From positions 30,001-94,000 of the forward strand of contig JBATPX010000217.1 of the NCBI GenBank assembly GCA_049291695.1: 64,000 nucleotides of DNA. The letters run 5' to 3'. Made by a program: the position numbers and the translations under genes. This document shows, piece after piece, positions 2,830 through 16,965 of this stretch; the stretch's first letter is position 1; every line of letters begins with the position of its first letter. This DNA comes from Defluviicoccus sp. GTDB taxonomy: Bacteria; Pseudomonadota; Alphaproteobacteria; Rhodospirillales; Defluviicoccaceae. Below the pieces are notes generated by a model. That model saw only the letters and a list, made by a program, of their open reading frames with translations. It searched no databases and was not told where the DNA came from.

Positions 2830-2846
2830 GGCGGGCCCAAGAAGCG

Positions 2847-4220
2847 ATGGGTGAACCGCGCGCCCGCCGCGCAGTCCACGTCATCGGCGGCGGCCTCGCC
2901 GGAAGTGAGGCTGCCTGGCAGCTTGTGCGCGCCGGCATTCCCGTCGTCCTGCACGAGATGCGCCCGCTCACGCCGACGCCGGCGCACCGAACCGGCCAAC
3001 TGGCCGAACTCGTCTGCTCCAACTCCTTTCGCTCCGACGATGCCGAGACGAGCGCGATCGGTCTCCTGCACGCGGAGATGCGAAAGCTCGGCTCCCTGGT
3101 TCTGCAAGCCGCCGATGCGTCGCGCGTTCCTGCCGGTGCGGCGCTCGCCGTCGACCGGGAGCTGTTCAGCACGCGGGTTGAGGAAGCGCTATTGAGCCAT
3201 CCGCTGTTGACCTTTAAGCGGGAGGAGGTAAGCGAACTGCCGGCCGCCGATTGGCCGCATGTTATTATCGCCACCGGGCCGCTGACCGCGCCCGCGCTCG
3301 CCGCCTCCCTGCAAGCGGTCACCGGCGAAGGCGCGCTCGCCTTTTTCGATGCGATCGCCCCGATCGTGACCCGCGACAGCGTCAATTTCTCGATCGCCTG
3401 GTTCCAGTCCCGCTACGACAAGGGCGAGGGCCGGGACTACATCAACTGCCCCTTGAGCAGGCCCCAATACGACGCGTTCGTCGCCGCGTTGCAGGCGGCG
3501 GACACGGTGCCGTTCCATGACTGGGAGCGCGACACACCCTATTTCGAGGGGTGCCTGCCGATCGAGGTGATGGCGGCGCGCGGCCTCGAAACGCTCGCGC
3601 ATGGGCCGATGAAGCCGGTCGGCTTGCGCAATCCGCATGACGGCGACAAGCGGCCGTATGCGGTGGTGCAGCTGCGGCAGGACAACGCGCAAGGAAGCCT
3701 CTACAACATGGTCGGCTTCCAGACCAAGATGAGGCATGCCGAGCAGGTCCGCCTGTTGCGCACCATTCCCGGCCTCGAGAACGCCGCGTTCGTCCGCTTG
3801 GGCGGCATTCACCGCAACACCTTCGTGAACAGCCCACGCGTGCTGGATTCGACCCTGCGCTTAACCGCGCGACCGCAGGTGCGGCTTGCCGGCCAGATCA
3901 CCGGCTGCGAAGGCTATGTCGAGAGTGCCGCGGTCGGGCTGTTGGCGGGACTCTTCACGGCGGCTGAGATCGGCGGGGGCGTGATGCCGCCGCCGCCGCG
4001 CACGACCGCGCTCGGTGCTCTCCTGCAGCATCTGGTCGCCGATGCGGTGGCCGACGTGTTTCAGCCGATGAACGTCAATTTCGGCCTGTTCCCGGCGCTT
4101 CCACCCAGCGGCACGGACAAGCGTCCGCCGGCCGGCCGGGACCGCAAGCGGCTCCTCGCCGCGCGCGCGCTCGCCGATCTGGCAATCTGGTCGCAGCGCG
4201 TGGCGATAACGGTGGGCTAG
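2847..4220 (+). CDS. trmFO: Methylenetetrahydrofolate--tRNA-(uracil-5-)-methyltransferase TrmFO (Gid)
   Basis: FAD-binding GxGxxG ([17 protein letters not shown]) and family-typical blocks ([33 protein letters not shown]). ATG 2847 is preferred because the ORF-track extension from 2676 overlaps uvrA and is Arg-rich junk. Confidence 0.9.
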
Positions 4221-4705
4221 CTGCTTTCGCAGGCGTTGAAGCCGTGGCGGACAGGAATCCACGGCTTTTCGACCAGCTTGGAAAAGCTCTCCGGCGCCGT
4301 CTCGAACGCCTCGTAGAAGATATCCCAGGTGAAGTAGCAGTAGCCGTAGCCGATGTTCTGGCTGCGCTTGGACGCATCGTTGGCCAGATTGGTTACGAAC
4401 TCGTTGAGCTTGTCGGTTCCCTTGACGCCGTGAATGCGCTGGAACAAGCCGATCAGATGGCTGCCCTCTTCCTGCAGCTGCGGTTGAAACCTCGTCACGA
4501 ACTGGTTGTACTGCTCTCCTTGGCCGCAGCTCAGCGCACCGATGAGCAGTTCCGTCTGCAGCACGCGCGTGTCGAGCGCGAGCTTTTCGCTGTTGGAAAC
4601 ACAAGGGTTAGGCTTTGCAGCCTTGACCGCCGCGGCGCCGGCAGGGGCGGCGAGTGCAGCGGCGCAAACAAGAGCGAAAACGCCGAACGTGGAACGACGA
4701 AGCAT
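4217..4705 (-). CDS. Hypothetical secreted protein (signal peptide, conserved Cys)
   Basis: [24 protein letters not shown] looks like a Sec signal. Balanced composition after it. ATG at 4705 chosen over the upstream start. Its stop overlaps the trmFO stop (CTAG). No family recognised. Confidence 0.5.
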
Positions 4706-5071
4706 GTGAACAACCCACTTGAAGCCATGACCGGGAAGGCAACGCAACGCTGCACGCTTGTGCCATCACGCTTGCGCCCACACAAGCATGCCGCAATGGC
4801 ATTGCTTGCAAAGTAACGATATTTCTAGCGCAGGCTCTGTTAAGCGACCGTGAACGCCAAGCCGTCCATGCCCACCGCACCGAGGACACTCGCGAGTACC
4901 ACGTTTCACGTTCGATTGCCATGGCGTGCCGGCTACCCGCGCGCAGGTCGGCCGAGGCCGGACCGCAGTTGTGACGAAACCGCTGCAGCGACTTGGAGAT
5001 TTGCAGTTTGAGGTGCGGCCGTCGCTGGACAATGCGCGCCGTGAGCGATACCGTCCGCCGCCTTTGAGGTT

Positions 5072-5599
5072 TTGAACATCGCGGAGAATCGGCCATTGAT
5101 GAAGGCAACCGCGCGCACTGCCCGGCACCAGGGGGTCTCTACAGGCTGGGGCGCTTGGTTGTGGCGCGCCGCCGCCGCGGTCGGTGTCGCTGCCGTCATC
5201 GGCACGGGTGTGGCTGATCGCGTCCCGGTCCTGGGCAACGTGCTCGTTGGCGGGCTGCTGGTCGTCGGGCCGGCCGCCGCTGCCGAAGAATCCGCCGCCC
5301 GGGCGACACAGCGGTTGTTCGAAGCGGTGCACAGCAACGACCTTGCTGCGGCACGGGCCAGTGTGGCCGCCGGCGCCGACCTGGAGGCGACGGATCGGTG
5401 GGGCCTCACCGCGCTCGAACTTGCGATCGACAAGGGCTACTACGAAATCGCCCATTTCCTCACCGCCGCCCGCAGCGCGCGGCGTTCGCAGCGGCCAGGG
5501 ACACCGCAGCCTGCGGAAGCCGCGCGCTCCGCCCTCCCTGCGCCCGGCACTGCAGCCACCCCGGGCCTGTCAGACCGCCGCTACCCGCCTCGCACCTAA
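5072..5599 (+). CDS. Ankyrin-repeat protein with N-terminal hydrophobic segment
   Basis: ANK-like repeat LFEAVHSNDLAAARASVAAGADLEATDRWGLTALELAIDKGYYEIAHFL. Hydrophobic stretch VGVAAVIGTG..LVGGLLVVG. Pro-rich tail. Alternative start ATG 5099. Confidence 0.55.
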   Translation: MNIAENRPLMKATARTARHQGVSTGWGAWLWRAAAAVGVAAVIGTGVADRVPVLGNVLVGGLLVVGPAAAAEESAARATQRLFEAVHSNDLAAARASVAAGADLEATDRWGLTALELAIDKGYYEIAHFLTAARSARRSQRPGTPQPAEAARSALPAPGTAATPGLSDRRYPPRT

Positions 5600-6480
5600 T
5601 ACCGGCCGCGCGCGTGGTTGACGGCTGCCGCGATCATGCGCAACGGCGCCCGGCGGTGCAACCGAACGGCGAAGGGGTCGTTTCCGGCACGCTTCAGCTC
5701 GTTGAGGTGCCCCTCGGCGTACGTGGCCCACAACAGCACCGGCAATGCCCGCTTTGAAACCACTGCGCGGCGGTCGCGCGCCGCCGCCAGATGCTGCCGT
5801 GCCGTCGCCGCCACTATGCCGACGGCGGTGCGCAGCTGCGGGCGCGCCGATTCCCGGATCGAATCCGCCTGCGTGAGTGCGGCGGCCTGTGCCACCGCCT
5901 GCGGCACGACCAGCGTTCGCGCCCGCGCATCCGCAGGCAGCTCCCGCAACAGCCCGGCGAGCGCCCAGCCGACGCTGACCTCCTGCGCTGCCAGCCGCTC
6001 TTCTCGGCCGCCGCAGGCGAGCACCGTCAGCGCCAGTGCGGCTATTCCGGCCGTCGTTTCCTGCACGTGGCCGATCAGCGCCGCCATGTCCGGCAGCGCC
6101 TCGTCGGCCAGTTCCCGGTCGCGCGCAGCCAACAGGGGGGCGAACGCGCCCTGCGGGAGGTCGTAGCGACGGATCGCGTCGCTCAATGCCACGGCGACCG
6201 GATGGCCGGAACAACGTCCGGCGTAGATCGCGTCGATTGCATCCCGCCACCACTGCACCCGCATCAAGCCGACAAGCGGCTCGCGTACGCGGGTGCGGAT
6301 CCGCGACAGCTCCAGGTCAAGCGCATAGAGCGCCGCGAGTGCCGTGCGCACCTCGGCCGGTGCAAAAAGGCTGCACAGAAAGCGTTCCTTGTCGAACGAG
6401 CGGACCTGATCGATGCAATAGGCGGCCGAACCGTCGATCGGCGCTTCAGACTTGCGCTCGCCTGTACTAAACAGACACAT
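5596..6480 (-). CDS. Squalene/phytoene synthase family protein (NDUFAF6-like), Asp-rich motif not evident
   Basis: Family blocks FLCSLFAP..RTALAALYALDLELSRIR and LMRVQWWRDAIDAIY. LDLELS sits where YAFCRxxDDxxD is expected. ATG 6480 chosen (MCLFSTGE). Confidence 0.65.
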   Translation of the reverse strand: MCLFSTGERKSEAPIDGSAAYCIDQVRSFDKERFLCSLFAPAEVRTALAALYALDLELSRIRTRVREPLVGLMRVQWWRDAIDAIYAGRCSGHPVAVALSDAIRRYDLPQGAFAPLLAARDRELADEALPDMAALIGHVQETTAGIAALALTVLACGGREERLAAQEVSVGWALAGLLRELPADARARTLVVPQAVAQAAALTQADSIRESARPQLRTAVGIVAATARQHLAAARDRRAVVSKRALPVLLWATYAEGHLNELKRAGNDPFAVRLHRRAPLRMIAAAVNHARGRY

Positions 6481-6553
6481 CCATCCACTTCCGACCGGCG
6501 GCGCCGCTGGGGGGACGACCATACGACGCAGAGCCGATCCGGATTTCTCGCTG

Positions 6554-7354
6554 ATGCCTTGGCTGTTCCCGGCGCGACTGCGGCCGCACGTCACCGCGTT
6601 TGGCCGTTTTGTTCGCCTCGCCCACGGGATTGCTCACAACGCCTTCCTCAGCCACGAGGAGCGCCTGCATCACCTCGCCACGCTTGACGCCGCAATCGGC
6701 GGCGATGAGGCCGAGCCGCCGGAATTCCCGGGTGCCGAGCCGATCTGCGCGGCGCTGCGTGCCAGCCTGCGCACAAGCGGGGTCGCCGATACGCATGTGC
6801 GCCGCATCCTGCAGGCGCTGCGCCGTGATGTCGAGGGAGGTGCCAACAGGAGCTGGGGCGACCTTCTCGTTTACTCCCAGTTCGCCGCGGCGCCGATCGG
6901 CCGGCACATGCTGGACCTGGTGGGCGAAGACAGCCGTTCCTACCGGCCCGCCTCCGATGCGCTGTGCGCGGCGCTCGGCATTCTCAAGCAATTGCGCGAC
7001 TTCCGCGAGCCGACACTGCACGACAACCGCCATTGGGTCCCCGAAATCTTCCTTGCCGATGCGTTCATCACCCATGAGCATTTGGGGGCTCTGAGGGCGA
7101 AGGGACAGACCCGGGCGGTGCTGGATCGCATTCTTGACGGGATCGAGCAGCTCCTGAATGCGGCCGAACCGCTGCCGCGCCACGTGCGATCGTGGCGGCT
7201 GCGCAGCCATATCCGCGTCGTCCAGTGCCGGGCGCGCGGCCTCGTTGCCTGCTTCCGCGATAACGACCCGCTTGATGCGCGCGTCGGCCTGACGTGGTGG
7301 CAGCGTCAGGTCTGCCTGGGTGCGGGCCTGATCCGCGGCCTCGTCAATACCTGA
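6554..7354 (+). CDS. HpnC-like squalene synthase family protein with substituted first Asp-rich motif
   Basis: PWLFPARLRPHVTAFGRFVRLAHGIAHNAFLSHEERLHHL aligns by eye to the HpnC N-terminal block (..FPVAS.L.P.R....AFY.F.R.ADDIAD...). AHGIAH replaces ADDIAD. Homology seems to continue upstream (DFSL), so the true start may be ATG 6452, which would overlap the divergent gene by 29 nt. Confidence 0.6.
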   Translation: MPWLFPARLRPHVTAFGRFVRLAHGIAHNAFLSHEERLHHLATLDAAIGGDEAEPPEFPGAEPICAALRASLRTSGVADTHVRRILQALRRDVEGGANRSWGDLLVYSQFAAAPIGRHMLDLVGEDSRSYRPASDALCAALGILKQLRDFREPTLHDNRHWVPEIFLADAFITHEHLGALRAKGQTRAVLDRILDGIEQLLNAAEPLPRHVRSWRLRSHIRVVQCRARGLVACFRDNDPLDARVGLTWWQRQVCLGAGLIRGLVNT

Positions 7355-7473
7355 TGCGGCTGTCGTAACGACTACCCGCGGCACGAGGGGCCGCGGCGAA
7401 CGTCCCTTTTCATCGTGCCGGCGAAACCCTATGTTGCCGACTATTAACCACGGTTGGATGGGGATGCAGGACC

Positions 7474-8079
7474 ATGGCTTTCGAACTTCCGCCGCTGCCG
7501 TTCGCGAAGGACGCGCTGGCGCCGCACATTTCGGCGAACACGCTCGACTTCCATCACGGCAAGCATCACAACGCCTACGTCACCAATCTCAACGCGCTGA
7601 CCAAGGATACGCCGCTTGCGAACGAAACGCTGGAAGGTGTGATCCACGCCGCTGCCGGCGACGCCAGCAAGGCCGGTATCTTCAATAACGCTGCGCAGGT
7701 GTGGAACCACACGTTCTACTGGAACTGCATGAAGCCCGGCGGCGGAGGACAGCCGTCGGCCGTGCTTGCAAGCGCGCTTGCAAGTGCTTTCGGTTCGTTC
7801 GAGAAGTTCAAGGACGAGTTCAAGAACGCCTGCGTCACTCAGTTCGGCAGCGGGTGGGGTTGGCTGGTCGCAGCTGACGGTGCACTTAAAATCACCAAGA
7901 CCGCCAACGCCGACCTGCCGCTGGCGCATGGGCAGACCGCACTCCTGACCTGCGACGTTTGGGAGCATGCCTACTACCTCGACTACCAGAACCGGCGCCC
8001 CGATTACGTCCAGGTGTTTCTCGATCACCTCGTCAATTGGGATTTCGTCGCTGAGAACCTGAGCAAAGCCAAGTCCTGA
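7474..8079 (+). CDS. sodB: Fe/Mn superoxide dismutase
   Basis: MAFELPPLPFAKDALAPHISANTLDFHHGKHHNAYV and the C-terminal DVWEHAYYLDYQNRRPDY metal-ligand motif. Confidence 0.95.
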   Translation: MAFELPPLPFAKDALAPHISANTLDFHHGKHHNAYVTNLNALTKDTPLANETLEGVIHAAAGDASKAGIFNNAAQVWNHTFYWNCMKPGGGGQPSAVLASALASAFGSFEKFKDEFKNACVTQFGSGWGWLVAADGALKITKTANADLPLAHGQTALLTCDVWEHAYYLDYQNRRPDYVQVFLDHLVNWDFVAENLSKAKS

Positions 8080-8099
8080 CGGCACGCTGTTGAGTCCGT

Positions 8100-8133
8100 G
8101 CGAGGGGGCTGGTGCAGCGCCGTCTCCCCTCGC
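8100..8133. terminator. Hairpin between convergent sodB and the Mth938-like gene
   Basis: GCGAGGGG (8100-8107) pairs with CCCCTCGC (8126-8133) across an 18-nt loop. No U-tract. Confidence 0.25.
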
Positions 8134-8137
8134 GCGT

Positions 8138-8524
8138 TCACTCGACCGCAATCAGGGCTGCGATGACGGCGCGCTCATCCGCGAGCAGCAGGTTCCACGT
8201 GCGGCAGGCTGCAGCGGTTGTCATCCATTCGAGACCGGCACCGGCAGCACGAACGGCTTGCGCAATCTCCTTAGGCGGTGGCAGGTAACGCGGCCCGCAC
8301 CCCACCAACAGCATCTCGACGGTGCTGCCGCGCACAAACATGCCGCGCAAGCTTTCGAGGCTGATGTCGCCGGCACCGGGGACGTACCACGGCTCGGCGC
8401 ACTGCGGGTGAAGGATCAGCGGGCCTTCGTAGCGCTTGCCGGCGACCGTGAAGCCGCCTCGGCCGTACCTTTGGATGACCTGCGGGATCCCCGCGGCGGG
8501 CGTCCGCGGCTCACTGTCCGCCAT
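8138..8524 (-). CDS. Mth938/DUF498 domain protein (NDUFAF3-like)
   Basis: 128 aa with RYGRGGFTVAGKRYEGPLIL...VEMLLVGCG...LEWMTTAAACRTWNLL, the pattern I associate with the Mth938 fold. Lies directly downstream of secF, as is common in alphaproteobacteria. Confidence 0.7.
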   Translation of the reverse strand: MADSEPRTPAAGIPQVIQRYGRGGFTVAGKRYEGPLILHPQCAEPWYVPGAGDISLESLRGMFVRGSTVEMLLVGCGPRYLPPPKEIAQAVRAAGAGLEWMTTAAACRTWNLLLADERAVIAALIAVE

Positions 8525-8530
8525 TCGCCC

Positions 8531-9481
8531 TCACGGCTGCTGCTGCTCCGTCGTCTCCGCTGCGCTTTCGCCGGCGAGCGTGCTCTGGCGAACGTTGAGG
8601 TACAACAGGAGCGGCACGGCAACGCAGACGGACGAATACGTGCCGATGACAATGCCCCAGATCATGGCGAAGCTGAACCCGCGCAGAACCTCGCCGCCAA
8701 GGAAATAGAGAGATAGAAGAGTGAACAGTGTTGTCGTGCCGGTCAGGATCGTCCGCGACAAGGTCTGATTGACGGACAGGTCGATCAGCTGCGGCATCGC
8801 CATCGTCTTGTACTTGCGCAAGTTCTCGCGCACGCGGTCGAAGACGACGACCGTATCGTTGATCGAATAGCCGGCAATGGTCATGATCGCAGCCACGATC
8901 GTCAGGTTGAATTCGTAGCCGAGAACAGAGAATATTCCCGCCGTGGCGATGACGTCGTGGAGCAGGGAAACGACGCCGCAGACCCCGAACTGCCATTCGA
9001 AGCGGAACCAGATGTAGACGAGGATGGCCAGCAGCGCCGCCGTGACCGCGTAAAGGGCGTCGCGAAGCAATTCGGCGCCGACCTGCGGGCCGACGAATTC
9101 GACCCGGCGATACTGCACCCCAGCACCCAAGGCCTCCTTGACGGCACCGACGGCGCGCTGCTGTGCGTCCTCGGTTCCTTCCTGCTTCGGGATCCGGATC
9201 AGGACCGTATCGGCGCTGCCGAATTCCTGCAGGCTTACCTCGCCGAAGCCAAGGCCGCCCAGCGTTTGCCGCATGCTGCCGAGATCGGCCGGTCCCGCCA
9301 TGCGCACTTCGAGGAGCATGCCGCCCTGGAAGTCAATGCCGAAGTTGAGGCCACGGACCACCAGCGACAGCAGCGAACCGATGATCAGAATGCCCGAAAT
9401 GACTAAATAAGCCCGTCGCCAGGCCATGAACGGCAGGCGCGGGGTTTCGGGGAAGAATCGGATGCCGCGAAACATGGTCAC
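8531..9481 (-). CDS. secF: Protein translocase subunit SecF
   Basis: 316 aa. N-terminal LNFGIDFQGG, six predicted TM segments, abuts the secD stop. Confidence 0.95.
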   Translation of the reverse strand: MTMFRGIRFFPETPRLPFMAWRRAYLVISGILIIGSLLSLVVRGLNFGIDFQGGMLLEVRMAGPADLGSMRQTLGGLGFGEVSLQEFGSADTVLIRIPKQEGTEDAQQRAVGAVKEALGAGVQYRRVEFVGPQVGAELLRDALYAVTAALLAILVYIWFRFEWQFGVCGVVSLLHDVIATAGIFSVLGYEFNLTIVAAIMTIAGYSINDTVVVFDRVRENLRKYKTMAMPQLIDLSVNQTLSRTILTGTTTLFTLLSLYFLGGEVLRGFSFAMIWGIVIGTYSSVCVAVPLLLYLNVRQSTLAGESAAETTEQQQP

Positions 9482-11047
9482 TCAGATCGGCAGCAGGGTG
9501 GGCCGGGCCCGGTTGAGCCAGGTCGCGACAAGCAGGCGGGTGACCGTCAACGCGGTGAACATCGACGTCACGATGCCGATCGACAGCGTGACGCCGAACC
9601 CGCGCACCGGGCCGGAGCCGAGGAAATACAACAACAGGCCGGCGAACAGTGTCGTCAGGTTGGAATCAACGATCGTCGTCAATGCGCGCGAAAACCCTGC
9701 CTCGATCGCGGAGATGATCGGTTTGCCGAGTGACGACTCCTCCCGGATGTGCTCGAAGATGAGAACGTTGGCGTCGACCGCCATGCCGATGGTGAGCACG
9801 ATGCCGGCGATGCCGGGCAGGGTCAGCGTCGCCTGCAGGAGCGAGAGCAGGGCGATGATCAAGATCATGTTGAAGACCAGCGCCACCACCGCGAACAGCC
9901 CGAACAGGCCGTAGGCCGCGATCATGAACACCGCAACCAGGATCAGGCCAACGACGCTCGCAACCTTGCCGGCGGCGATCGAGTCCGCACCCAGCGCCGG
10001 GCCGACCGTCCGCTCTTCGAGGATGGAAAGCGGGGCCGGCAGCGCGCCCGCGCGCAACAGAAGTGCCAGGTCGCGGGCTTCGGCGACACTGAAACTGCCG
10101 GTGATGATGCCGCTGCCGCCCAGGATCGGTTCGCGGATGCGCGGCGCGCTGATCACCTCGCCGTCGAGCACGATCGCCAGCAGCTTGCCGACGTTTTGCG
10201 TCGTGACGTCGCCGAATCGCTTGCCGCCGGCGGTATCGAAGCGGAAGGAGACGACCGGTTCGCCATCCTGAAACGTCGGCTGCGCATCGACCAGATTCTC
10301 GCCGCTGACGACGACCCGCTTGCGGACGGCGATGCGCCGCTGCGCGTCAGCAGTGCCGCGCGCTTCGCGCATCGGCAGCAGCGTGGTTCCGACCGGAGCC
10401 TGGCCGCCGGTGACGCCCTGGTCATCGACGAGGTGAAAGGTCATCTTCGCCGTCTTGCCGATCAGCGCCTTGATGCGCTCGGGATCATCGACACCGGGCA
10501 GCTGGACGAGCACGCGGTCGCTGCCCTGGCGCTGGATCGAGGGCTCGCGCACGCCGGTGGCGTCTATCCGGCGGCGGATGATCTCGATCGACTGCTCGAC
10601 CGCCGCCGTCTGGCGCTGCCGCATCCCCTCCTCGGACAGCCGCAGCGTGATCCGCCCGCCATCGCCGACGTTCACCACGAGGTCGCGGTCGCTCTCGGCG
10701 ATGAGCCGGCGCGCTTCCTCGACGCGGGTCCCCTCGCGAATGGTCACGGAAGCCTCGGCGGCGGCCGCGCCCAAGCCCTCGTACGGGATGCGCGCACCCC
10801 GCAGCAGCTCGCGGGCGGCGTCAACGACGCTGTCCATCCGCTCGCGGATCAGGGCGGCCGTATCCACCTGCATCAGGATATGCGATCCCCCTTGCAGATC
10901 GAGGCCGAGGTTGAGCTGACGGTCGCCAACCCACGCGGGCAGCGTCTGCACCCGTTCCGCGGAAATGAGGTTAACGGCGGCCAGCGCCGTCCCGAGGACG
11001 ACGACGGCAGCGATGACAAGAATCTTCCATTTCGGGAAGCGGACCAT
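9482..11047 (-). CDS. secD: Protein translocase subunit SecD
   Basis: 521 aa. LNLGLDLQGGSHILMQVD periplasmic-domain motif and a C-terminal 6-TM SecD/F core. Confidence 0.95.
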   Translation of the reverse strand: MVRFPKWKILVIAAVVVLGTALAAVNLISAERVQTLPAWVGDRQLNLGLDLQGGSHILMQVDTAALIRERMDSVVDAARELLRGARIPYEGLGAAAAEASVTIREGTRVEEARRLIAESDRDLVVNVGDGGRITLRLSEEGMRQRQTAAVEQSIEIIRRRIDATGVREPSIQRQGSDRVLVQLPGVDDPERIKALIGKTAKMTFHLVDDQGVTGGQAPVGTTLLPMREARGTADAQRRIAVRKRVVVSGENLVDAQPTFQDGEPVVSFRFDTAGGKRFGDVTTQNVGKLLAIVLDGEVISAPRIREPILGGSGIITGSFSVAEARDLALLLRAGALPAPLSILEERTVGPALGADSIAAGKVASVVGLILVAVFMIAAYGLFGLFAVVALVFNMILIIALLSLLQATLTLPGIAGIVLTIGMAVDANVLIFEHIREESSLGKPIISAIEAGFSRALTTIVDSNLTTLFAGLLLYFLGSGPVRGFGVTLSIGIVTSMFTALTVTRLLVATWLNRARPTLLPI

Positions 11048-11664: not shown

Positions 11665-12528
11665 ATGCACACGACCGATCTCGCCCCCCTTCTGCGGCGC
11701 TTGGCCGACGCGCTTGAGCGTCTGGCACCGCCGCTGCCCGCCGATGCCGGCCTTGACGACGGCGATGCCTTCGTCTGGAATCCGGCCGCGTCCGGCCTGC
11801 GCGCGGTCGCGAGCGTCAACCGGCTGGATTTGCGCCTGTTGCAGGGCATCGAGCAGCAGGCCGTGACTCTGCTCGCCAACACCAGACGCTTTGCCGAAGG
11901 CCTGCCCGCCAACAACGCGCTGTTGTGGGGCGCGCGCGGCACCGGCAAGAGCTCGCTGGTCAAAGCCATTCACGGCCATATCAACGCCGAACAGCCGCGC
12001 GCGCTGGCGCTGGTCGAGATCCACCGCGAAGACATCGCCTCGCTTCCCGATCTGTTGTTGCGCCTGCGGGCGAGTGAGCGCCGCTGCCTGTTGTTCTGCG
12101 ACGATCTGTCGTTCGACGGCCGCGACGCGTCGTATAAGTCGTTGAAAGCGGTGCTCGAAGGCGGGATCGAGGGCCGGCCGGAGAACGTCGTCTTCTATGC
12201 GACGTCCAATCGCCGCCACCTGATGCCGCGCGAGATGATCGACAACGAACGCGCAACGGCGGTCAATCGCGGCGAGGCGATCGAGGAGAAGATCTCGCTC
12301 TCCGACCGCTTCGGCCTCTGGCTCGGCTTCCACAGCTTCGATCAGGCGACCTACCTCGCGATCGTGCGCGCCTACGTCTGCCACTACGGCCTTGCGGTGG
12401 CCGATGACCTTGTGGCGGCGGAAGCGATCGCCTGGGCGCAGGCCCGCGGCGCCCGCTCGGGCCGCGTCGCCTGGCAATTCATCCAGGACTTAGCGGGCCG
12501 CCTGGGGTGCGGGATGGGTGGGGGGTAG
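11665..12528 (+). CDS. DUF815-type AAA ATPase
   Basis: Walker A GARGTGKSS, Walker B LLFCDDLSF, and the FYATSNRRHL block typical of DUF815. Divergent from yajC. Confidence 0.75.
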   Translation: MHTTDLAPLLRRLADALERLAPPLPADAGLDDGDAFVWNPAASGLRAVASVNRLDLRLLQGIEQQAVTLLANTRRFAEGLPANNALLWGARGTGKSSLVKAIHGHINAEQPRALALVEIHREDIASLPDLLLRLRASERRCLLFCDDLSFDGRDASYKSLKAVLEGGIEGRPENVVFYATSNRRHLMPREMIDNERATAVNRGEAIEEKISLSDRFGLWLGFHSFDQATYLAIVRAYVCHYGLAVADDLVAAEAIAWAQARGARSGRVAWQFIQDLAGRLGCGMGGG

Positions 12529-12625
12529 GGGGCGCGGGCGAACCATGCGGGCGCAAAACCTCGTTTGATCTCCGCAGTCGAGAACAAGTATCGTATCCTT
12601 CTCTGCGTTTGAGGAGTGAGATTGC

Positions 12626-14038
12626 ATGCCGACAGGCAGCAGCGTTACCGGCCCCAAGGGATCGGCACTGGCCCTCCCCCCGGCGACCACGCTGGCGGAG
12701 ATCCCAGCGCAGACGACGCTCGAGCCCTTGGAGAGTGGCGATCCCCGCTACGTCGATATCAACCGCGGTCTCGGCACGAGAGATCTGAGGAGGATGCGGG
12801 TGTGCCTGGAACAATCCGATGCCAACGCCAACCGCTATGCGAAAATCGCGTTCACCGGCCACCGTGGCTGCGGCAAGTCGACGGAACTCCTGCGGATGGA
12901 GCACGAGATCAGCGATCGCTTCACCTGCCTGCACCTCTACGTTGATGAGACCCTAATTCGGGACTGTCAGTACAGCGATCTCCTGCTCTGGCTCGCGCAC
13001 AGTCTGGTCGAGAAGGCTGAGGAACTGGGACTGAGAGCGCCACCGGGGTTGGTCAAGGATGTGGCCGATTGGTTCGCGGAGAAGACACTTGATGACGTAA
13101 AGACGGTCAAGCATGAGATCGAACTCGAAGCGACAGCCGAAGCCAAGGCGGGCGCCGGCGCTTTCGGCGTCGCGCTCAAGCTGTTGGCGCGCATCCGGGC
13201 GCGCGTGCAGGGCAACGTCGAGCAGCGGCAGACCATCAGGCTGAGATTACAGAGCTACGGCGTAGAGCTGATCGAGCGCGTCAACAGCCTGCTCGACTGG
13301 TTCCAGCAAGCCCTCGTCGATGCTCGCTGGGGGCCCGAACTGCTGATCGTCCAGGACAACCTCGACCGGCTGCCGGTCGACGTCGGCCGCCACCTGTTCT
13401 TCGATCACGGCGAGCTCTTGAAGCAGTTGCGGGCACACATGATCTTCACGCATCCGATCGCGATGGTGCTCGCCCCGTACCGTATCGGTGCCGTATTCGA
13501 CAACTGCTACACCATGCCGATGGTGAAGGTGCGGCACCGGGACGGCAGCCCCTGCGACGACGGCCTCAATGCTCTGATCGATCTGGTTGGCCGGCGGGTC
13601 GCGATCGATCGGGTGTTCACGGAAGAAGCTGTTGCGCGCTCGCTTGCCGCCCGGTCTGGCGGTAGTGTCCGTGACCTGTTGCGGCTGGTGACCAGCGCCC
13701 AGCAGGAAGCGCGCCTCGACGGCAAGACGCAGATCGACCAGGCAAGCGCGGATGAAGCGGTCAAGCGCCTGCGCCTCGATTTCGAACGGCTGCTCGTGCC
13801 AAGCGATGTCTATTTCCCGCTTCTGGCGCAGATCCACAGGACCAAGGACCTGACGCTCGCCGGTGGAACCGCCGCTGCTGCCAGTACGGCACAGGACGCA
13901 CGGGAATTCTTCAGCCAGCTTCTCTTTAACGGCAGCGTTCTTGAGTACAACGGCGATCGCAACTGGTACGATGTCCATCCGGTAATCCTGGACATCGAGG
14001 CCTTTCAACGTGCCCTCACGAGTGCCCGAGCCGGCTGA
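12626..14038 (+). CDS. KAP/STAND-like P-loop NTPase (no sensor repeats, no effector domain recognised)
   Basis: SD GAGGAG lies 9 nt before ATG 12626. Walker A GHRGCGKST (aa 78-86). About 150 aa of helical insert. Walker B-like LLIVQDNLDRL (aa 239-249, reminiscent of the KAP DDLDR signature). GGSVRDLL sensor-2/lid-like motif (aa 345-352). Confidence 0.7.
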   Translation: MPTGSSVTGPKGSALALPPATTLAEIPAQTTLEPLESGDPRYVDINRGLGTRDLRRMRVCLEQSDANANRYAKIAFTGHRGCGKSTELLRMEHEISDRFTCLHLYVDETLIRDCQYSDLLLWLAHSLVEKAEELGLRAPPGLVKDVADWFAEKTLDDVKTVKHEIELEATAEAKAGAGAFGVALKLLARIRARVQGNVEQRQTIRLRLQSYGVELIERVNSLLDWFQQALVDARWGPELLIVQDNLDRLPVDVGRHLFFDHGELLKQLRAHMIFTHPIAMVLAPYRIGAVFDNCYTMPMVKVRHRDGSPCDDGLNALIDLVGRRVAIDRVFTEEAVARSLAARSGGSVRDLLRLVTSAQQEARLDGKTQIDQASADEAVKRLRLDFERLLVPSDVYFPLLAQIHRTKDLTLAGGTAAAASTAQDAREFFSQLLFNGSVLEYNGDRNWYDVHPVILDIEAFQRALTSARAG

Positions 14039-15266
14039 GCCATCGGTTACCGCGGCCATTGATGCAAGTCCGGATCCGCACGACCGGGAATTGCGCGGGG
14101 TAGCGCTTGCTCTCAGCGATGGGAGCGGTTTTCGCCTCGCCATCGCCACCTTCGGTGATACCGGGATCCGCGACGTCCTCATCGATCGTCTGACGGCAAG
14201 GCTTGCCGCCGACGGCGTGACACTCACGCGCCTTGATGTCGCGTCCCTGGTGCCCCCTGATGAGCGGGAGGCGCGCCAGGAGTTCAGCTTGCTCGCCGCA
14301 CTGCGCGACCATTGCGCAGGACTGACAGCGGCGCAACAAGGGGCGAAAATTGCCATCTCGGTGGTCGGCCTGGAGCACTTCATCTCCGAGTTCAGCGACG
14401 GCGGCCTGGACGTGCTCGCGACCGCCAACCTGCAGCGGGAGCTGTTTCCCAAGGCCTGCCCGGTGCCGGTGGTGCTCTGGCTGCCACCGTGGGCGACGAC
14501 GCTGCTGGCTCAAAAAGCACCGGATCTGTGGCACTGGCGGACTGCGACCTTCGACTTTCCCGGCGGCGGCGCCCCGCCATCGGCCCTCACCGCGTGGCCG
14601 GAGCTGACGCGCGAGGAGTGGTGGCGGCCGGTCGATGGCGAGCGACTGGGGGAACTAACCGAGGAGCTGGAGGCACTGCGGAGGTCCGAGGGCGGGGAGG
14701 ACTCACCCCGCGCCCGTGCGTATGCGGCGCGTCTGCGCGTGCGTCTCGCCGACGCCCGTTATTCGCGAGGCACTTGGGATGAGGCGCTGTCCCTGCTGGT
14801 GGAAGCGCGCGAGGCCTACGAGCGCTTGGGCGACATGCGCTCGCGCGCGGTGACGATGGGCCAGATCGCGGACATTCTGCAAGCGCGCGGTCAGCTGGAC
14901 GAGGCGCTGCGCATTCGCAAGGAGGAGCAACTCCCCGTTTACGAGCGCTTGGGTGACGTGCGGGAGCGCGCGGTGACGATGGGCCAGATCGCGGACATTC
15001 TGCAAGCGCGCGGTCAGCTGGACGAGGCGCTGCGGATCCGGATGGAGGAGCAACTGCCGGTCTACGAGCGCTTGGGTGACGTGCGGGAGTTGCTTGTCGG
15101 CCGGGCGAATCTGGCGCAAATGCTTCTCATTCGCAACACCAAGGACGATCGCCCGGAGGCGCACCGGCTGCTGTGCCTGGCGCTGGCCGACGCCCGACGG
15201 CTGGGCCTGCCCGAAGCCGCACAGATCGAACGGCTACTGACCGACGCTGGCCTTGCATGCAATTGA
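14010..15266 (+). CDS. Degenerate NTPase-like N-domain fused to TPR repeats (partner of the preceding NTPase)
   Basis: The GTG start overlaps the upstream stop by 29 nt; alternative in-frame starts are GTG 14022 and TTG 14091. The N-terminal ~180 aa show a strand/helix alternation with FGDTGIRD and VVGLEH at the positions where Walker A and B would be, and no GK[ST]. C-terminal 41-aa TPR units: YERLGDxRxRAVTMGQIADILQARGQLDEALRIRxEEQLPV. Confidence 0.75.
   Translation: MPSRVPEPAEPSVTAAIDASPDPHDRELRGVALALSDGSGFRLAIATFGDTGIRDVLIDRLTARLAADGVTLTRLDVASLVPPDEREARQEFSLLAALRDHCAGLTAAQQGAKIAISVVGLEHFISEFSDGGLDVLATANLQRELFPKACPVPVVLWLPPWATTLLAQKAPDLWHWRTATFDFPGGGAPPSALTAWPELTREEWWRPVDGERLGELTEELEALRRSEGGEDSPRARAYAARLRVRLADARYSRGTWDEALSLLVEAREAYERLGDMRSRAVTMGQIADILQARGQLDEALRIRKEEQLPVYERLGDVRERAVTMGQIADILQARGQLDEALRIRMEEQLPVYERLGDVRELLVGRANLAQMLLIRNTKDDRPEAHRLLCLALADARRLGLPEAAQIERLLTDAGLACN
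14817..15090 (+). repeat. 123-bp tandem repeat (2 full copies + 27-nt partial) encoding TPR units
   Basis: Copies at 14817-14939 and 14940-15062, partial copy from 15063. By eye about 12 mismatches per 123 nt, with a perfectly identical core of about 69 nt (gcgcgcggtgacgatgggccagatcgcggacattctgcaagcgcgcggtcagctggacgaggcgctgcg). Confidence 0.9.
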
Positions 15267-15275
15267 AAGCCACGC

Positions 15276-15298
15276 GCGGAAGCGTCAGCAGCTTCCGC
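15276..15298. terminator. Hairpin between convergent TPR gene and RHH gene
   Basis: GCGGAAGC-gtcagca-GCTTCCGC, 10 nt after the 15266 stop. A second short GCTCC/GGAGC hairpin follows. No U-tract. Confidence 0.35.
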
Positions 15299-15392
15299 TA
15301 GGGTGCGGATGCGGGGGCTCCTCCCGGGGAGCGCCGACGCGTTATCTAAACGGCGACCGCCCCGCCGCTCGCGCTTCGCGTCCGCCCCCCCG

Positions 15393-15866
15393 CTAATGCC
15401 GCCAGTCGTCGCCGGGGGTCAGGGCGGCGTCGAGGAAGTTGGCGACCGCGTTCTGCAGCAGGCTCTGCACGCTGACGCCCCACAGCCGCGCGATGTTGCG
15501 CAGTTGGCGGTGGGACTCGGGCCGCAAGCGAAAGCTCAAGCGTTTCCAGTCTTCCTCCCGGCCCCCGTCGATCGCTGCCGGCGTCAATGGCGGCGGTGCC
15601 GACAGTGCCTCGCGTGGATACTCCTCCGTGCTGTCCGCGCCCCAAGGCGTCTCGCCGATCGGGACCGGCGGCGGTGCCACGATCGCGCCCGGCGGCAGCG
15701 CGCCGGTGACCCGCCGTTGGATGAGGAAGCCAAGCGGTGATGAGGCGCCCGCCTCGACGCCCGCGCGCGGATCGCGCACCGGCACGCCGGCGGGAATAGC
15801 TTCGCCCTTCTTGGCGAACAGGCTCTCGCGCCCGCTGCGGGCGCGCGGGGCTCTCGTCATGTTCAT
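15393..15866 (-). CDS. Ribbon-helix-helix (ParG/CopG-like) protein with long disordered N-terminus
   Basis: C-terminal DWKRLSFRLRPESHRQLRNIARLWGVSVQSLLQNAVANFL fits the RHH strand-helix-helix pattern. Basic N-terminal tail MNMTRAPRARSGR. The start lies 1 nt after the ParA stop. Confidence 0.6.
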   Translation of the reverse strand: MNMTRAPRARSGRESLFAKKGEAIPAGVPVRDPRAGVEAGASSPLGFLIQRRVTGALPPGAIVAPPPVPIGETPWGADSTEEYPREALSAPPPLTPAAIDGGREEDWKRLSFRLRPESHRQLRNIARLWGVSVQSLLQNAVANFLDAALTPGDDWRH

Positions 15867-15867
15867 G

Positions 15868-16644
15868 TCAGCCTGCCACGGCCACCGGTGGCGTCGACTT
15901 GCGGCGGCCAAAGGCGGCGCGCTTCTGGTACACGCCGGTGCCGAGCGTCGCGCGGCCGGCCGGCTTGTCGATGCGGGCGTAGATGTAGTTCCACAAATCC
16001 GCCACCTCGAGCGCGGCCGCGGTGCCGGGCTGCGTCTCGACCACGGTCAGGCCGTGGATCATGCTGGTCGCATAAATGGTCCTGTGCGCGATGCAGACCG
16101 GCGCCACCGTGCCGTGCTGGGAGAGCGCGATCGCGGTATCGCTTGTGATCCGGGCCCTGGGCGTCGCGTCGCTGACGACGAAGATCAAGGGCTTCATCTG
16201 GCTGTCGATGATATCGACCGTCGCTCCGACCGCCCGCAGATCGTGCGGCGAGGGCTTGGTCGGCACCACAACCATGTCGGCGAAGGCGACAATGCGGCGG
16301 ATGGTATCGGTCACCGCCGGCGGCGTATCGATGAAAACAAGCCGGATGCCGCTCCGCTCCAACTGGTCCAGGTCCTCGTGCAGGTAGTCGACCTGCGCCT
16401 TCATGAACACCGGCGCGTCCGCCGAGCGCGCATTCCACCACTGCGCCAGGCTGCCCTGCGGATCGGTATCGACGAGCGCGACCGGGCCGCAGCCGGTCAG
16501 CTCCGCCTGCACGGCAAGATGCCCGCACAGCGTGGTCTTGCCGGATCCGCCCTTCTGCGAGGAGAACACGACGACGCGAAGGCCGCGCGTGTTCTCGCCG
16601 GCGGCGGACGAGCTTTCGTTCCCGACCGGTTGAGACGTCAGCAT
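15868..16644 (-). CDS. ParA/MinD-family partition-type ATPase (orphan)
   Basis: Deviant Walker A VFSSQKGGSGKTT, VALVDTDPQGS, Walker B LVFIDTPP. ATG 16644 chosen (MLTSQP). Confidence 0.85.
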   Translation of the reverse strand: MLTSQPVGNESSSAAGENTRGLRVVVFSSQKGGSGKTTLCGHLAVQAELTGCGPVALVDTDPQGSLAQWWNARSADAPVFMKAQVDYLHEDLDQLERSGIRLVFIDTPPAVTDTIRRIVAFADMVVVPTKPSPHDLRAVGATVDIIDSQMKPLIFVVSDATPRARITSDTAIALSQHGTVAPVCIAHRTIYATSMIHGLTVVETQPGTAAALEVADLWNYIYARIDKPAGRATLGTGVYQKRAAFGRRKSTPPVAVAG

Positions 16645-16844
16645 GCTCCACTCCCTGCCGAACCGCCAACCCGTTGCTCGCGGTGCTGGCGGAAAAGAGC
16701 TCGATGTCGCGTCGCAAGTATCCGGCCAGGGCGGCGGCGCTGGTGCGTGTCCGGGACGATTTTCATCAAGCACAACCCGAACCGCATCCGGCGACACGCC
16801 AAGCCGCCGTGCACTGGAAGAAATAAACCGAAAACCTGCACCGC

Positions 16845-16965
16845 GTTTATATAGCATAGGACGTCCCAGCAGACGAATTATAATATTCTATACTTATATA
16901 TGCTGAAATAGCTGGAAATTGCTCTTAATTAATTGCATATTTTCGCGCATTAATCTCTTTACGAA
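16845..16965. promoter_or_regulatory. Strongly AT-rich spacer with short direct and palindromic repeats (candidate divergent promoter / centromere-like site)
   Basis: Visibly AT-rich in a GC-rich context. GAAATAGCT (16905-16913) and GAAATTGCT (16915-16923) repeat at a 10-bp period. TTAATTAA and ATTAAT palindromes follow. Confidence 0.35.

Follow-up and report, generated by a model that had tools for sequence, protein, structure and literature searches.

Two overlapping genes on the forward strand of a 64,000-nucleotide stretch of Defluviicoccus sp. DNA (contig JBATPX010000217.1, positions 30,001 to 94,000; hereafter the window, in whose coordinates positions are given unless another locus is named) form a self-contained cassette that moves between distant microbes. 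Gene 1 (12626 to 14038) encodes a stand-alone AAA+ ATPase of 470 aa with Cdc6/Orc1-, STAND- and KAP-like features, and gene 2 (14010 to 15266) encodes a 418-aa partner built of an N-terminal domain (the N-domain), a linker and an array of tetratricopeptide repeats (TPR). An earlier note, made from the sequence alone, had placed both open reading frames (ORFs) correctly and had proposed an apparently active P-loop NTPase coupled to a TPR partner; our analysis bears out this two-gene reading as far as sequence can, but not the view that the N-domain is a degenerate NTPase. Sequence, structural models and analogy together incline us, with modest confidence, to regard the pair as a putative NLR-like two-component conflict module, horizontally mobile and probably directed against phages or mobile elements.

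The pair and its N-domain across genomes

We surveyed one genome per species and found that at least 577 species representatives encode a relative of gene 1. The pair ranges over Planctomycetota, Alphaproteobacteria, Acidobacteriota, many filamentous Cyanobacteria, Chloroflexota and Verrucomicrobia, and it also occurs in one Mycobacteriaceae metagenome-assembled genome (MAG) and in the archaeon Methanothrix. Among the 80 loci kept for neighborhood analysis, 73 carry a homologue of the gene 2 N-domain directly downstream of gene 1 on the same strand, and the other 7 have little or no sequence after gene 1. Co-occurrence of the two genes across genomes, on which the earlier note had made its proposal depend, is thus far beyond chance. 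In 69 of 72 loci the genes overlap or abut, a start codon of the gene 2 frame lying no later than the stop of gene 1. All-against-all clustering of the neighboring ORFs showed that only gene 1 (80 loci) and gene 2 (75 loci) are conserved; no third conserved gene was found in the 80 loci, and the next clusters were antisense shadows or generic paralogous families such as response regulators, ABC ATPases, kinases and cyclases. One Nostoc MAG holds two copies of the pair (L060 and L079).

Across hundreds of species, the N-domain is without exception encoded immediately behind a gene-1-type ATPase, irrespective of what comes after the domain, be it TPR, TPR plus WD40, NACHT-LRR or nSTAND1. A search of its profile against 1.84 billion representative proteins, with clusters at 50% identity, returned 5,903 clusters at E<=1e-3, of which 2,680 reached E<=1e-10, and the domain was N-terminal in 150 of the 150 matches listed. 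On cyanobacterial megaplasmids, gene 1 paralogues of 23-26% identity, labeled KAP family NTPase or ATP-binding protein by their depositors, are followed by giant WD40 proteins (>1,900 and >1,800 aa), and the N-domain profile matches their first ~150 residues at E 5e-20. In Schlesneria (L007, L017), gene 1 has an N-domain-NNH1-NACHT(-LRR) protein behind it. At locus L094 the partner of a gene-1-family ATPase (E 9e-42) has 1,193 aa and carries two N-domains in tandem with nSTAND1 after them; the two genes overlap by 31 nt. That the N-domain can precede a complete NTPase argues against its being the eroded NTPase half of a split STAND protein. Judged by these sequence contexts, it behaves as a coupling domain in the effector/adaptor slot of STAND proteins, and not as their engine. 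The rule that the N-domain stands next to the ATPase gives a handle for finding further receptors and allows one to ask whether the sensor/helper logic of NLRs exists outside eukaryotes.

Gene-1-like domains also occur within larger proteins. The C-terminal half of a 956-aa protein of L094 is a gene-1-like ATPase (E 3e-42) that stands behind another ATPase module. Nostoc sp. C057 plasmid p057_J (L086, 967-6140) carries a complete VMAP (VMAP-M1 + VMAP-C)-MoxR-vWA ternary system, and the C terminus of its vWA protein is a gene-1-like KAP_NTPase domain with an intact Walker A motif; the C-terminal position of the vWA component in such systems has been interpreted as an effector position (PMC7159879). 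At L094 the region 395-9582 is a cluster of four STAND-like genes, and at L086 HEAT-repeat and FGE-family genes lie downstream of the ternary system.

In the window, the pair is the sole content of a variable cassette slot (12552 to 15382) that extends from the gene for a DUF815 ATPase to that for a 172-aa ribbon-helix-helix (RHH)-like protein. The blastn homology with sister contigs L088 and L091 stops at 12524/12551 and restarts at 15383-15386, and these breakpoints define the cassette as exactly the two genes. The sister contigs, whose DUF815 is ~90% identical, keep the backbone (SOD ... yajC-DUF815 / slot / 160-aa gene-ParA-DeoC/FBA-thiE-EcsC-NDUS4-PLD), and the content of the slot changes. 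L081, with a gene 1 that is 85% identical, has gene 1 and gene 2 in the window's own context (SOD-DUF498-secF-secD-yajC-DUF815-gene 1-gene 2); three Rhodospirillales MAGs (L088-L090) have a 79-aa Unstab_antitox ORF (L088 7861-8473); two Defluviicoccus sp. contigs (L091, L092) have HEC-01A (E 5e-159) and HEC-01B (7e-60) at L091 5646-7525; and L093 has small ORFs, an HTH_3 gene and a 1,004-aa protein of no named family (after 7915). Relatives of gene 1 at 65% and 59% identity, the latter in Defluviicoccus vanus, lie in unrelated gene contexts. The pair is therefore no fixed neighbor of yajC/DUF815; the earlier note had said that a fixed neighborhood would speak against its proposal. We may conclude that the DUF815/RHH-like junction is a hotspot at which Defluviicoccus-related Rhodospirillales exchange cassettes. 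Neither a recombinase nor a repeat accounts for this, and a search for direct or inverted repeats or att-like sites flanking the cassette gave none that was convincing. The DUF815/RHH-ParA slot thus represents a natural experiment of cassette exchange in this group.

The accessory islet proposed in the earlier note shrinks accordingly: the slot of gene 1 and gene 2 is accessory, whereas the ParA and RHH genes, which occur in every sister contig (L088-L092) whatever the slot contains, belong to the backbone. Both were rejected as members of the module, being conserved in sister genomes without the pair. The RHH-like protein (15393-15911, reverse strand) has a weak antitoxin-like C terminus, and the neighboring gene (15868-16857, reverse strand) encodes a ParA-type partition ATPase (NF041546, E 7.5e-48); both are chromosomal. 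On the other side, the DUF815 AAA+ ATPase (11665-12528, forward strand; Pfam E 7.5e-102) is divergently adjacent to yajC-secD-secF and is kept at 70-90% identity in thousands of alphaproteobacterial sequences; it is a core gene outside the module.

Pairwise comparison of the window with L081 indicated different rates of divergence along the locus. SecD is 92.5% identical (dN/dS, the ratio of nonsynonymous to synonymous divergence, 0.13; dS 0.33) and DUF815 88.5% (0.14; 0.43). Gene 1 follows at 84.8% (0.20; 0.44), and within gene 2 the N-domain is at 74.5% (0.22; 0.71) and the TPR region at 72.7% (0.25; 0.84), with an array one 41-aa unit shorter in L081. The dN/dS values of 0.20-0.25 imply that purifying selection maintains both genes of the pair. 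Divergence is faster in gene 2 than in gene 1 and includes gain or loss of repeats and possibly recombination. Gene 1 and the backbone have a dS of 0.33-0.44 and gene 2 (14010-15266 against L081 6630-7757) roughly double that, a pattern suggestive of an exchange or recombination of gene 2 alone after the separation of the two genomes.

Architecture of the ATPase and its partner

Gene 1 starts with an ATG at 12626 and ends with a TGA at 14036-14038. In the AlphaFold2 model (pLDDT [the predicted local distance difference test] of 89; predicted template modeling score 0.88), the AAA+ core consists of beta1 (73-78), the Walker A helix (84-94), beta2 (100-105), the Walker B strand (239-244), the sensor-1 strand (271-277) and beta5 (293-297). 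It is followed by an AAA+ lid (aa 311-389; 13556 to 13792), matched weakly by Pfam AAA_lid_4 and AAA_assoc_2, and by a C-terminal winged helix (aa 393-469; 13802 to 14032) with the elements H393-435, E438-441 and E447-450. Foldseek against the PDB ranked archaeal Cdc6/Orc1 first (2qby_A at 5e-8, then 1fnn and 2v1u), with RuvB, the archaeal ATPase SSO1545 (2fna), ORC, RFC and TnsC next. The 427 homologues of gene 1 measure about 450-470 aa (range 445-490 aa) and contain no repeats. Pfam models gave only generic, sub-threshold matches, across 54 orthologues AAA_22 (41), AAA_16 (34), AAA_assoc_2 (21), KAP_NTPase (18), ORC-CDC6-like (9) and nSTAND5 (1), which means that the family has no dedicated model. 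Phmmer or profile searches against PDB sequences returned P-loop- or lid-level noise only; NCBIfam gave a weak match to Sll1717, on which a literature search yielded nothing.

The three motifs that the earlier note had picked out in gene 1, GHRGCGKST, LLIVQDNLDRL and GGSVRDLL, are all present, and their core residues are invariant or nearly so in alignments of 19 and 54 orthologues. In the Walker A motif or P-loop (GHRGCGKST, aa 78-86; 12857 to 12883), G78, R80, G81, G83, K84 and T86 are all invariant in the 54 orthologues, and the motif is common also to paralogues of 25% identity. The Walker B strand and motif LLIVQDNLDR (aa 239-248; 13340 to 13369), extended to aa 249 as LLIVQDNLDRL, has a NACHT-like D-x-h-D arrangement: N245 is invariant in both alignments, D244 is nearly invariant, and D247 is invariant in the 19 orthologues and nearly so in the 54. 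Classical AAA+ proteins have the catalytic Glu of Walker B where gene 1 has N245, and the DNLD of gene 1 resembles what we take to be the NACHT motif D-G-x-D-E. Leipe et al. reportedly described in 2004 an extra conserved acidic residue after the STAND Walker B (hhhhD[DG]xxD/E); the LLIVQD244-N245-L-D247-R of gene 1 agrees with this, and the vWA-fused paralogue reads DGLDR here. Between the sensor-1 strand and beta5, neither alignment shows a conserved Arg, which means that the box VII arginine finger is missing. The lid carries the sensor-2-type motif SGGSVRDLLRL (aa 344-354; GGSVRDLL being aa 345-352), with G345, G346, R349, D350 and R353 invariant in the 54 orthologues. In the WYDVHP motif of the winged helix, D449 and H451 are invariant in both alignments and W447 in the 19 orthologues, nearly so in the 54; in distant paralogues an N replaces the His.

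Between beta2 and the Walker B strand lies an insert (aa 108-232; 12947 to 13321) that the model shows as all-helical. The earlier note had described a helical insert of ~150 aa; the insert is there, at ~125 aa. No transmembrane segment was found in it, the median of the maximal 19-aa Kyte-Doolittle window across the family being 1.38, and the motif G-aromatic-aromatic-x-S-L-x-LLARLKS at its tip is conserved. All these features make gene 1 an intact nucleotide-switch ATPase, soluble and belonging to the Cdc6/Orc-STAND-KAP assemblage.

Gene 2 begins with the GTG at 14010; the public protein collection has a product of 414 aa, which corresponds to another in-frame GTG, at 14022. Counted from the first GTG, gene 2 overlaps gene 1 by 29 nt, as the earlier note had it, and counted from the second by 17 nt. 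The AlphaFold2 model (pLDDT 88.7) comprises the N-domain, a low-confidence linker (184-209) and a TPR solenoid (210-412). The N-domain (aa 25-183; 14082 to 14558), modeled confidently, has five beta-alpha units. FGDTGIRD and VVGLEH, which the earlier note had seen in the Walker A/B positions, do lie where beta1 meets alpha1 and where beta3 ends, respectively. However, the beta1-alpha1 connection of only 2-3 residues is too short for a P-loop, and the N-domain profile matched no family among PDB sequences and Pfam; Pfam, NCBIfam and PADLOC models, applied to both proteins, also gave nothing for this domain. Comparison by hhalign with the gene 1 nucleotide-binding domain (with and without the insert) and with DUF815 gave probabilities <3%; as the control, gene 1 against DUF815, reached only 28%, this is soft negative evidence. 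A degenerate P-loop NTPase thus finds no backing, since no profile relation to AAA+ or P-loop families appeared. EAD2 was likewise dismissed as the identity of the N-domain, the match of 1 in 25 members at E 0.004 being taken as chance.

Over 323 sequences the N-domain shows the signature NxxR[ED] ... APDxWxWR, made up of two motifs. In N140-x-x-R143-E (14427 to 14441), all 323 sequences have both N140 and R143. In A170-P-D172-x-W-x-W-R177 (14517 to 14540), D172 reaches 100%, A170 99%, W176 95%, W174 91% and R177 85%; R54, outside both motifs, also reaches 85%.

The TPR array (aa 210-412; 14637 to 15245) consists of approximately three full 41-aa units, of the kinesin-light-chain type that the earlier note had named. 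TPR_12 matches at E 2.8e-11 (43.9 bits, cut-off 30.1) and TPR_10 also matches, and Foldseek with the whole gene 2 model, in which the TPR array dominates the matches, found the TPRs of KLC1/KLC2 (E 7.6e-7) and also of LGN. Within the array, Tandem Repeats Finder reported a near-identical 123-nt (41-aa) tandem repeat (14816 to 15089; 2.2 copies, 91% identity), which a second repeat search recovered as repeat family D1. TPRs stand behind the N-domain in 67 of the 74 gene 2 homologues scanned, some of the matches being of TPR_MalT type. Relatives of gene 2 mostly have 500-650 aa and more TPR units, the version in the window being short. In a Nostoc homologue (L067 9280-11685), gene 2 runs on, in the same frame, into a domain of the Uma2 type (PF05685; aa 607-791, E 6.5e-30), a putative restriction endonuclease, the sole enzymatic fusion to the sensor protein that we saw.

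Around the two genes, a Shine-Dalgarno-like GAGGAG (12611 to 12616, forward strand) lies 9 nt 5' of the gene 1 ATG, and the GC content of the gene 1/gene 2 region (0.63-0.68) is the same as in the rest of the window. A scan for sigma-70 promoters and intrinsic terminators gave nothing useful. A perfect 8-bp hairpin, GCGGAAGC-gtcagca-GCTTCCGC, stands at 15276-15298, 10 nt 3' of the gene 2 stop; having no T-run, it was not reported by the terminator scan.

Proposed function and alternatives

In the conflict module that we favor, the TPR array would be the ligand sensor, by analogy with Avs and NLR sensors (PMC13581612), and the N-domain would offer a docking and activating surface for the gene 1 ATPase. 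Gene 1 reads D-N where D-E is usual and lacks an arginine finger, and the N-domain has an invariant Asn and Arg; the N-domain may thus control hydrolysis or assembly in trans, and its invariant Asn, Arg and Asp may complement the ATPase site. Ligand binding would then license ATP-dependent assembly of the ATPase, which might act via its winged helix and insert by binding nucleic acid or another cellular target, with arrest of the invader or the cell; nucleic-acid binding of the kind seen in Orc/Cdc6, TnsC or IstB assemblies is our best guess. Because no other gene is conserved, we infer that the ATPase itself is the output, which fits the gene-1-like domains in effector positions elsewhere. 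The activation in trans and the executioner role of the ATPase are held with less confidence than the general model. Since the slot holds a candidate anti-virus system in sister genomes, the pair is probably an immune-type module. As for other outputs, ATP depletion was rejected on order-of-magnitude grounds, because cells regenerate ATP much faster than AAA+ proteins turn it over, and activity as an unfoldase or in threading because the Cdc6/Orc/STAND clade, to our knowledge, lacks pore loops.

Were the pair an immune module, it would be a widespread addition to the prokaryotic NLR-like repertoire, with at least 577 species representatives and ~5,900 N-domain clusters; its nucleotide switch and receptor would be separate proteins joined by a domain absent from databases, and, there being no conventional effector, its mechanism of killing or arrest would be new. 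A further step, which we put forward tentatively and think rather unlikely, is a prokaryotic "sensor plus helper" circuit: the N-domain would be a new coupling class that plugs diverse receptors into one KAP/STAND-like ATPase, and this ATPase would be a non-enzymatic executioner that assembles on nucleic acid or some other target and whose site is completed in trans by the Asn, Arg and Asp of the N-domain. Such a circuit, if true, would be to bacteria and archaea what paired sensor/helper NLRs are to plants.

Several results weigh against an immune role. Nuclease, protease, TIR and pore models from Pfam, NCBIfam and PADLOC matched neither protein, in agreement with the earlier note, which had recognized no effector; the proposed output thus comes purely from inference. 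Nor did either protein match a system model of PADLOC-DB v2.0.0, the best scores being VakA for gene 1 (E 0.021 over 15 residues only) and a generic TPR model for gene 2 (4.7e-6). With only about three TPR units in this lineage, the sensing capacity may be reduced. Relatives of the pair were not found in phage and IMG/VR collections, and the plasmid collection held only distant paralogues. HEC-01, the defense candidate that takes the same slot in sister contigs, is a PARIS-like ABC-ATPase/TOPRIM pair that gave no protection in the original assay (10.1101/2024.01.29.577857). PADLOC applied to 132 neighbor ORFs from ~20 other loci reported SngA/B, HerA, MzaA, BrxD, LeoA/BC, mad2/3/8 and PDC-S03/S29; these scattered neighbors, for which there is no background rate, are only suggestive, and most neighborhoods consist of ordinary genes. 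Beside one distant paralogue of gene 1 lie HicAB, an integrase and a NACHT gene. CARD-NLR (LypABC; PMC13236601) and HEC-01 were both excluded as the identity of the pair. A literature search of limited coverage found no published description of the pair or the N-domain; a 589-clade STAND census (PMC13581612) may include relatives of gene 1.

A non-immune role in signal transduction deserves comparison. The pair could be a split MalT/AfsR-type STAND regulator in which the TPRs sense a ligand and the winged helix regulates transcription or housekeeping, for example development in filamentous or complex bacteria. The winged helix and Cdc6/Orc-like fold of gene 1, the TPR_MalT-type matches in gene 2 homologues, the enrichment in Cyanobacteria, Planctomycetota, Chloroflexota and Methanothrix, the mostly ordinary neighboring genes and the common occurrence of non-defense STAND clades (PMC13581612) are all compatible with this. 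However, a regulator of this type would have to be reconciled with the lack of conserved neighboring target genes, with contexts that are unrelated even inside one order, and with presence/absence polymorphism in a slot that otherwise holds a defense candidate or an antitoxin-like gene. The near-identical, number-variable repeats, the N-domain fusions to NACHT-LRR and nSTAND1 and the gene-1-like domain in a VMAP ternary system also speak against it, and we consider it unlikely.

The other two alternatives concern the N-domain and are less probable. It might be the effector, perhaps enzymatic, with gene 1 as its ATP-dependent regulator or chaperone and the invariant polar residues as a catalytic site. 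N140, R143 and D172 are indeed 100% conserved and flanked by conserved Trp, the N-terminal slot holds effectors in Avs/bNACHT proteins (PMC13581612), and gene 1 is the more conserved, "constant" partner. Yet the domain has no similarity to known enzyme families and lacks the invariant Glu, His, Lys, Ser or Cys that one expects of a hydrolase; gene-1-like domains occupy effector positions in other proteins that have no N-domain, and two tandem N-domains in one protein are more typical of adaptors, all of which makes an effector distinctly improbable. We regard as very improbable the split STAND protein of the earlier note, here a heteromeric ring of active and inactive NTPases in which the N-domain, an eroded P-loop domain, co-assembles with gene 1. 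Its five beta-alpha units are of the right size for this, a G-x-E is conserved after beta3, and R177 (85%), between alpha4 and beta5, would by positional analogy stand where AAA+ proteins have their arginine finger, which is not conserved in gene 1; the nSTAND2 pair is a precedent (PMC8195603). What decides us against it is that the profile matches no PDB chain and no Pfam family, that hhalign stays <3% (its control being weak as well), that the modeled beta1-alpha1 link has 2-3 residues, and that neither lid nor winged helix follows the N-domain, which instead stands, once in tandem, before complete NACHT or nSTAND1 modules, as would fit an adaptor.

Relation to known systems

With STAND/NLR-like proteins such as Avs and bNACHT, the pair shares the Cdc6/Orc-clade arrangement of P-loop domain, helical lid and winged helix, a second acidic Walker B residue, the absence of an arginine finger, TPR-type repeats and a patchy, mobile distribution. 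It differs from STAND proteins in that NTPase and repeat sensor belong to separate polypeptides, the NTPase has no N-terminal effector, gene 1 keeps a sensor-2 arginine (GGSxRD) and not GxP, and the sensor protein has an extra, undescribed N-domain. Curated STAND models (NACHT, NB-ARC, nSTAND1-6) did not match gene 1 at E<=1. In a comparison with MHD-type motifs, H451 of WYDVHP is invariant in orthologues and N in paralogues. It seems, from sequence and models, that the pair is an NLR/STAND-like sensor-switch that departs from several of the features defining STAND membership.

Gene 1 shares with KAP NTPases (PifA, Kidins220; PF07693) the large insert between Walker A and Walker B. On the 54 orthologues, PF07693 matched 18 at E<=0.01, and the window protein gave no match at E<=1; the paralogues L085 (24.8 bits) and L086 (34.4 bits) are above its gathering score (20 bits). 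Because the insert has no transmembrane segment, gene 1 lacks the defining KAP feature, membrane helices in the insert. In addition, gene 1 has a separate obligate partner where KAP proteins have a fused C-terminal effector region. KAP proteins have a link to phage exclusion, and KAP NTPases fused to effector regions of undefined kind protect against phage experimentally (PMC12632615).

The Cdc6/Orc1 and RuvB proteins have the same AAA+ base, lid and winged helix, and the helical elaboration after beta2 is at the position of the initiator-specific motif. However, identity is 10-17% and TM-scores are only 0.35-0.5, and, unlike Cdc6/Orc1, gene 1 has no box VII arginine, carries a 125-aa insert, is accessory and mobile, and has a TPR partner and no replication context.

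The nSTAND2 and iSTAND/iSTAND2 systems (Kaur et al. 2020, 2021) also join an active NTPase to a second constant module on another protein and fall with our pair into one class of conflict systems, which is enriched among multicellular prokaryotes. In the two-gene nSTAND2 system, one STAND module has lost its NTP-binding motifs, and this inactive module is fused to GT4 or HEPN effectors (PMC8195603). Our pair has no MoxR-vWA and no GT4 or HEPN, its partner carries TPR, WD40 or NLR sensors, and the partner domain has no detectable STAND similarity, so that a second STAND module is not demonstrable. The earlier note had cited inactive STAND proteins with TPR partners as a precedent, which does not apply: the iSTAND systems of Kaur et al. 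2020 are MoxR-vWA ternary systems (PMC7159879), unlike the pair. Adjacent MoxR and vWA genes were not found at the 80 loci, and a gene-1-like domain lies inside one such system, that of L086. The EAD/EACC systems (Kaur et al.) resemble the pair in having a small constant N-terminal domain on diverse sensors that is tied to a constant partner gene; the coupling here would be heterotypic, of N-domain with ATPase, in contrast to the homotypic EAD-EAD coupling, and the N-domain is an alpha/beta domain of ~160 aa.

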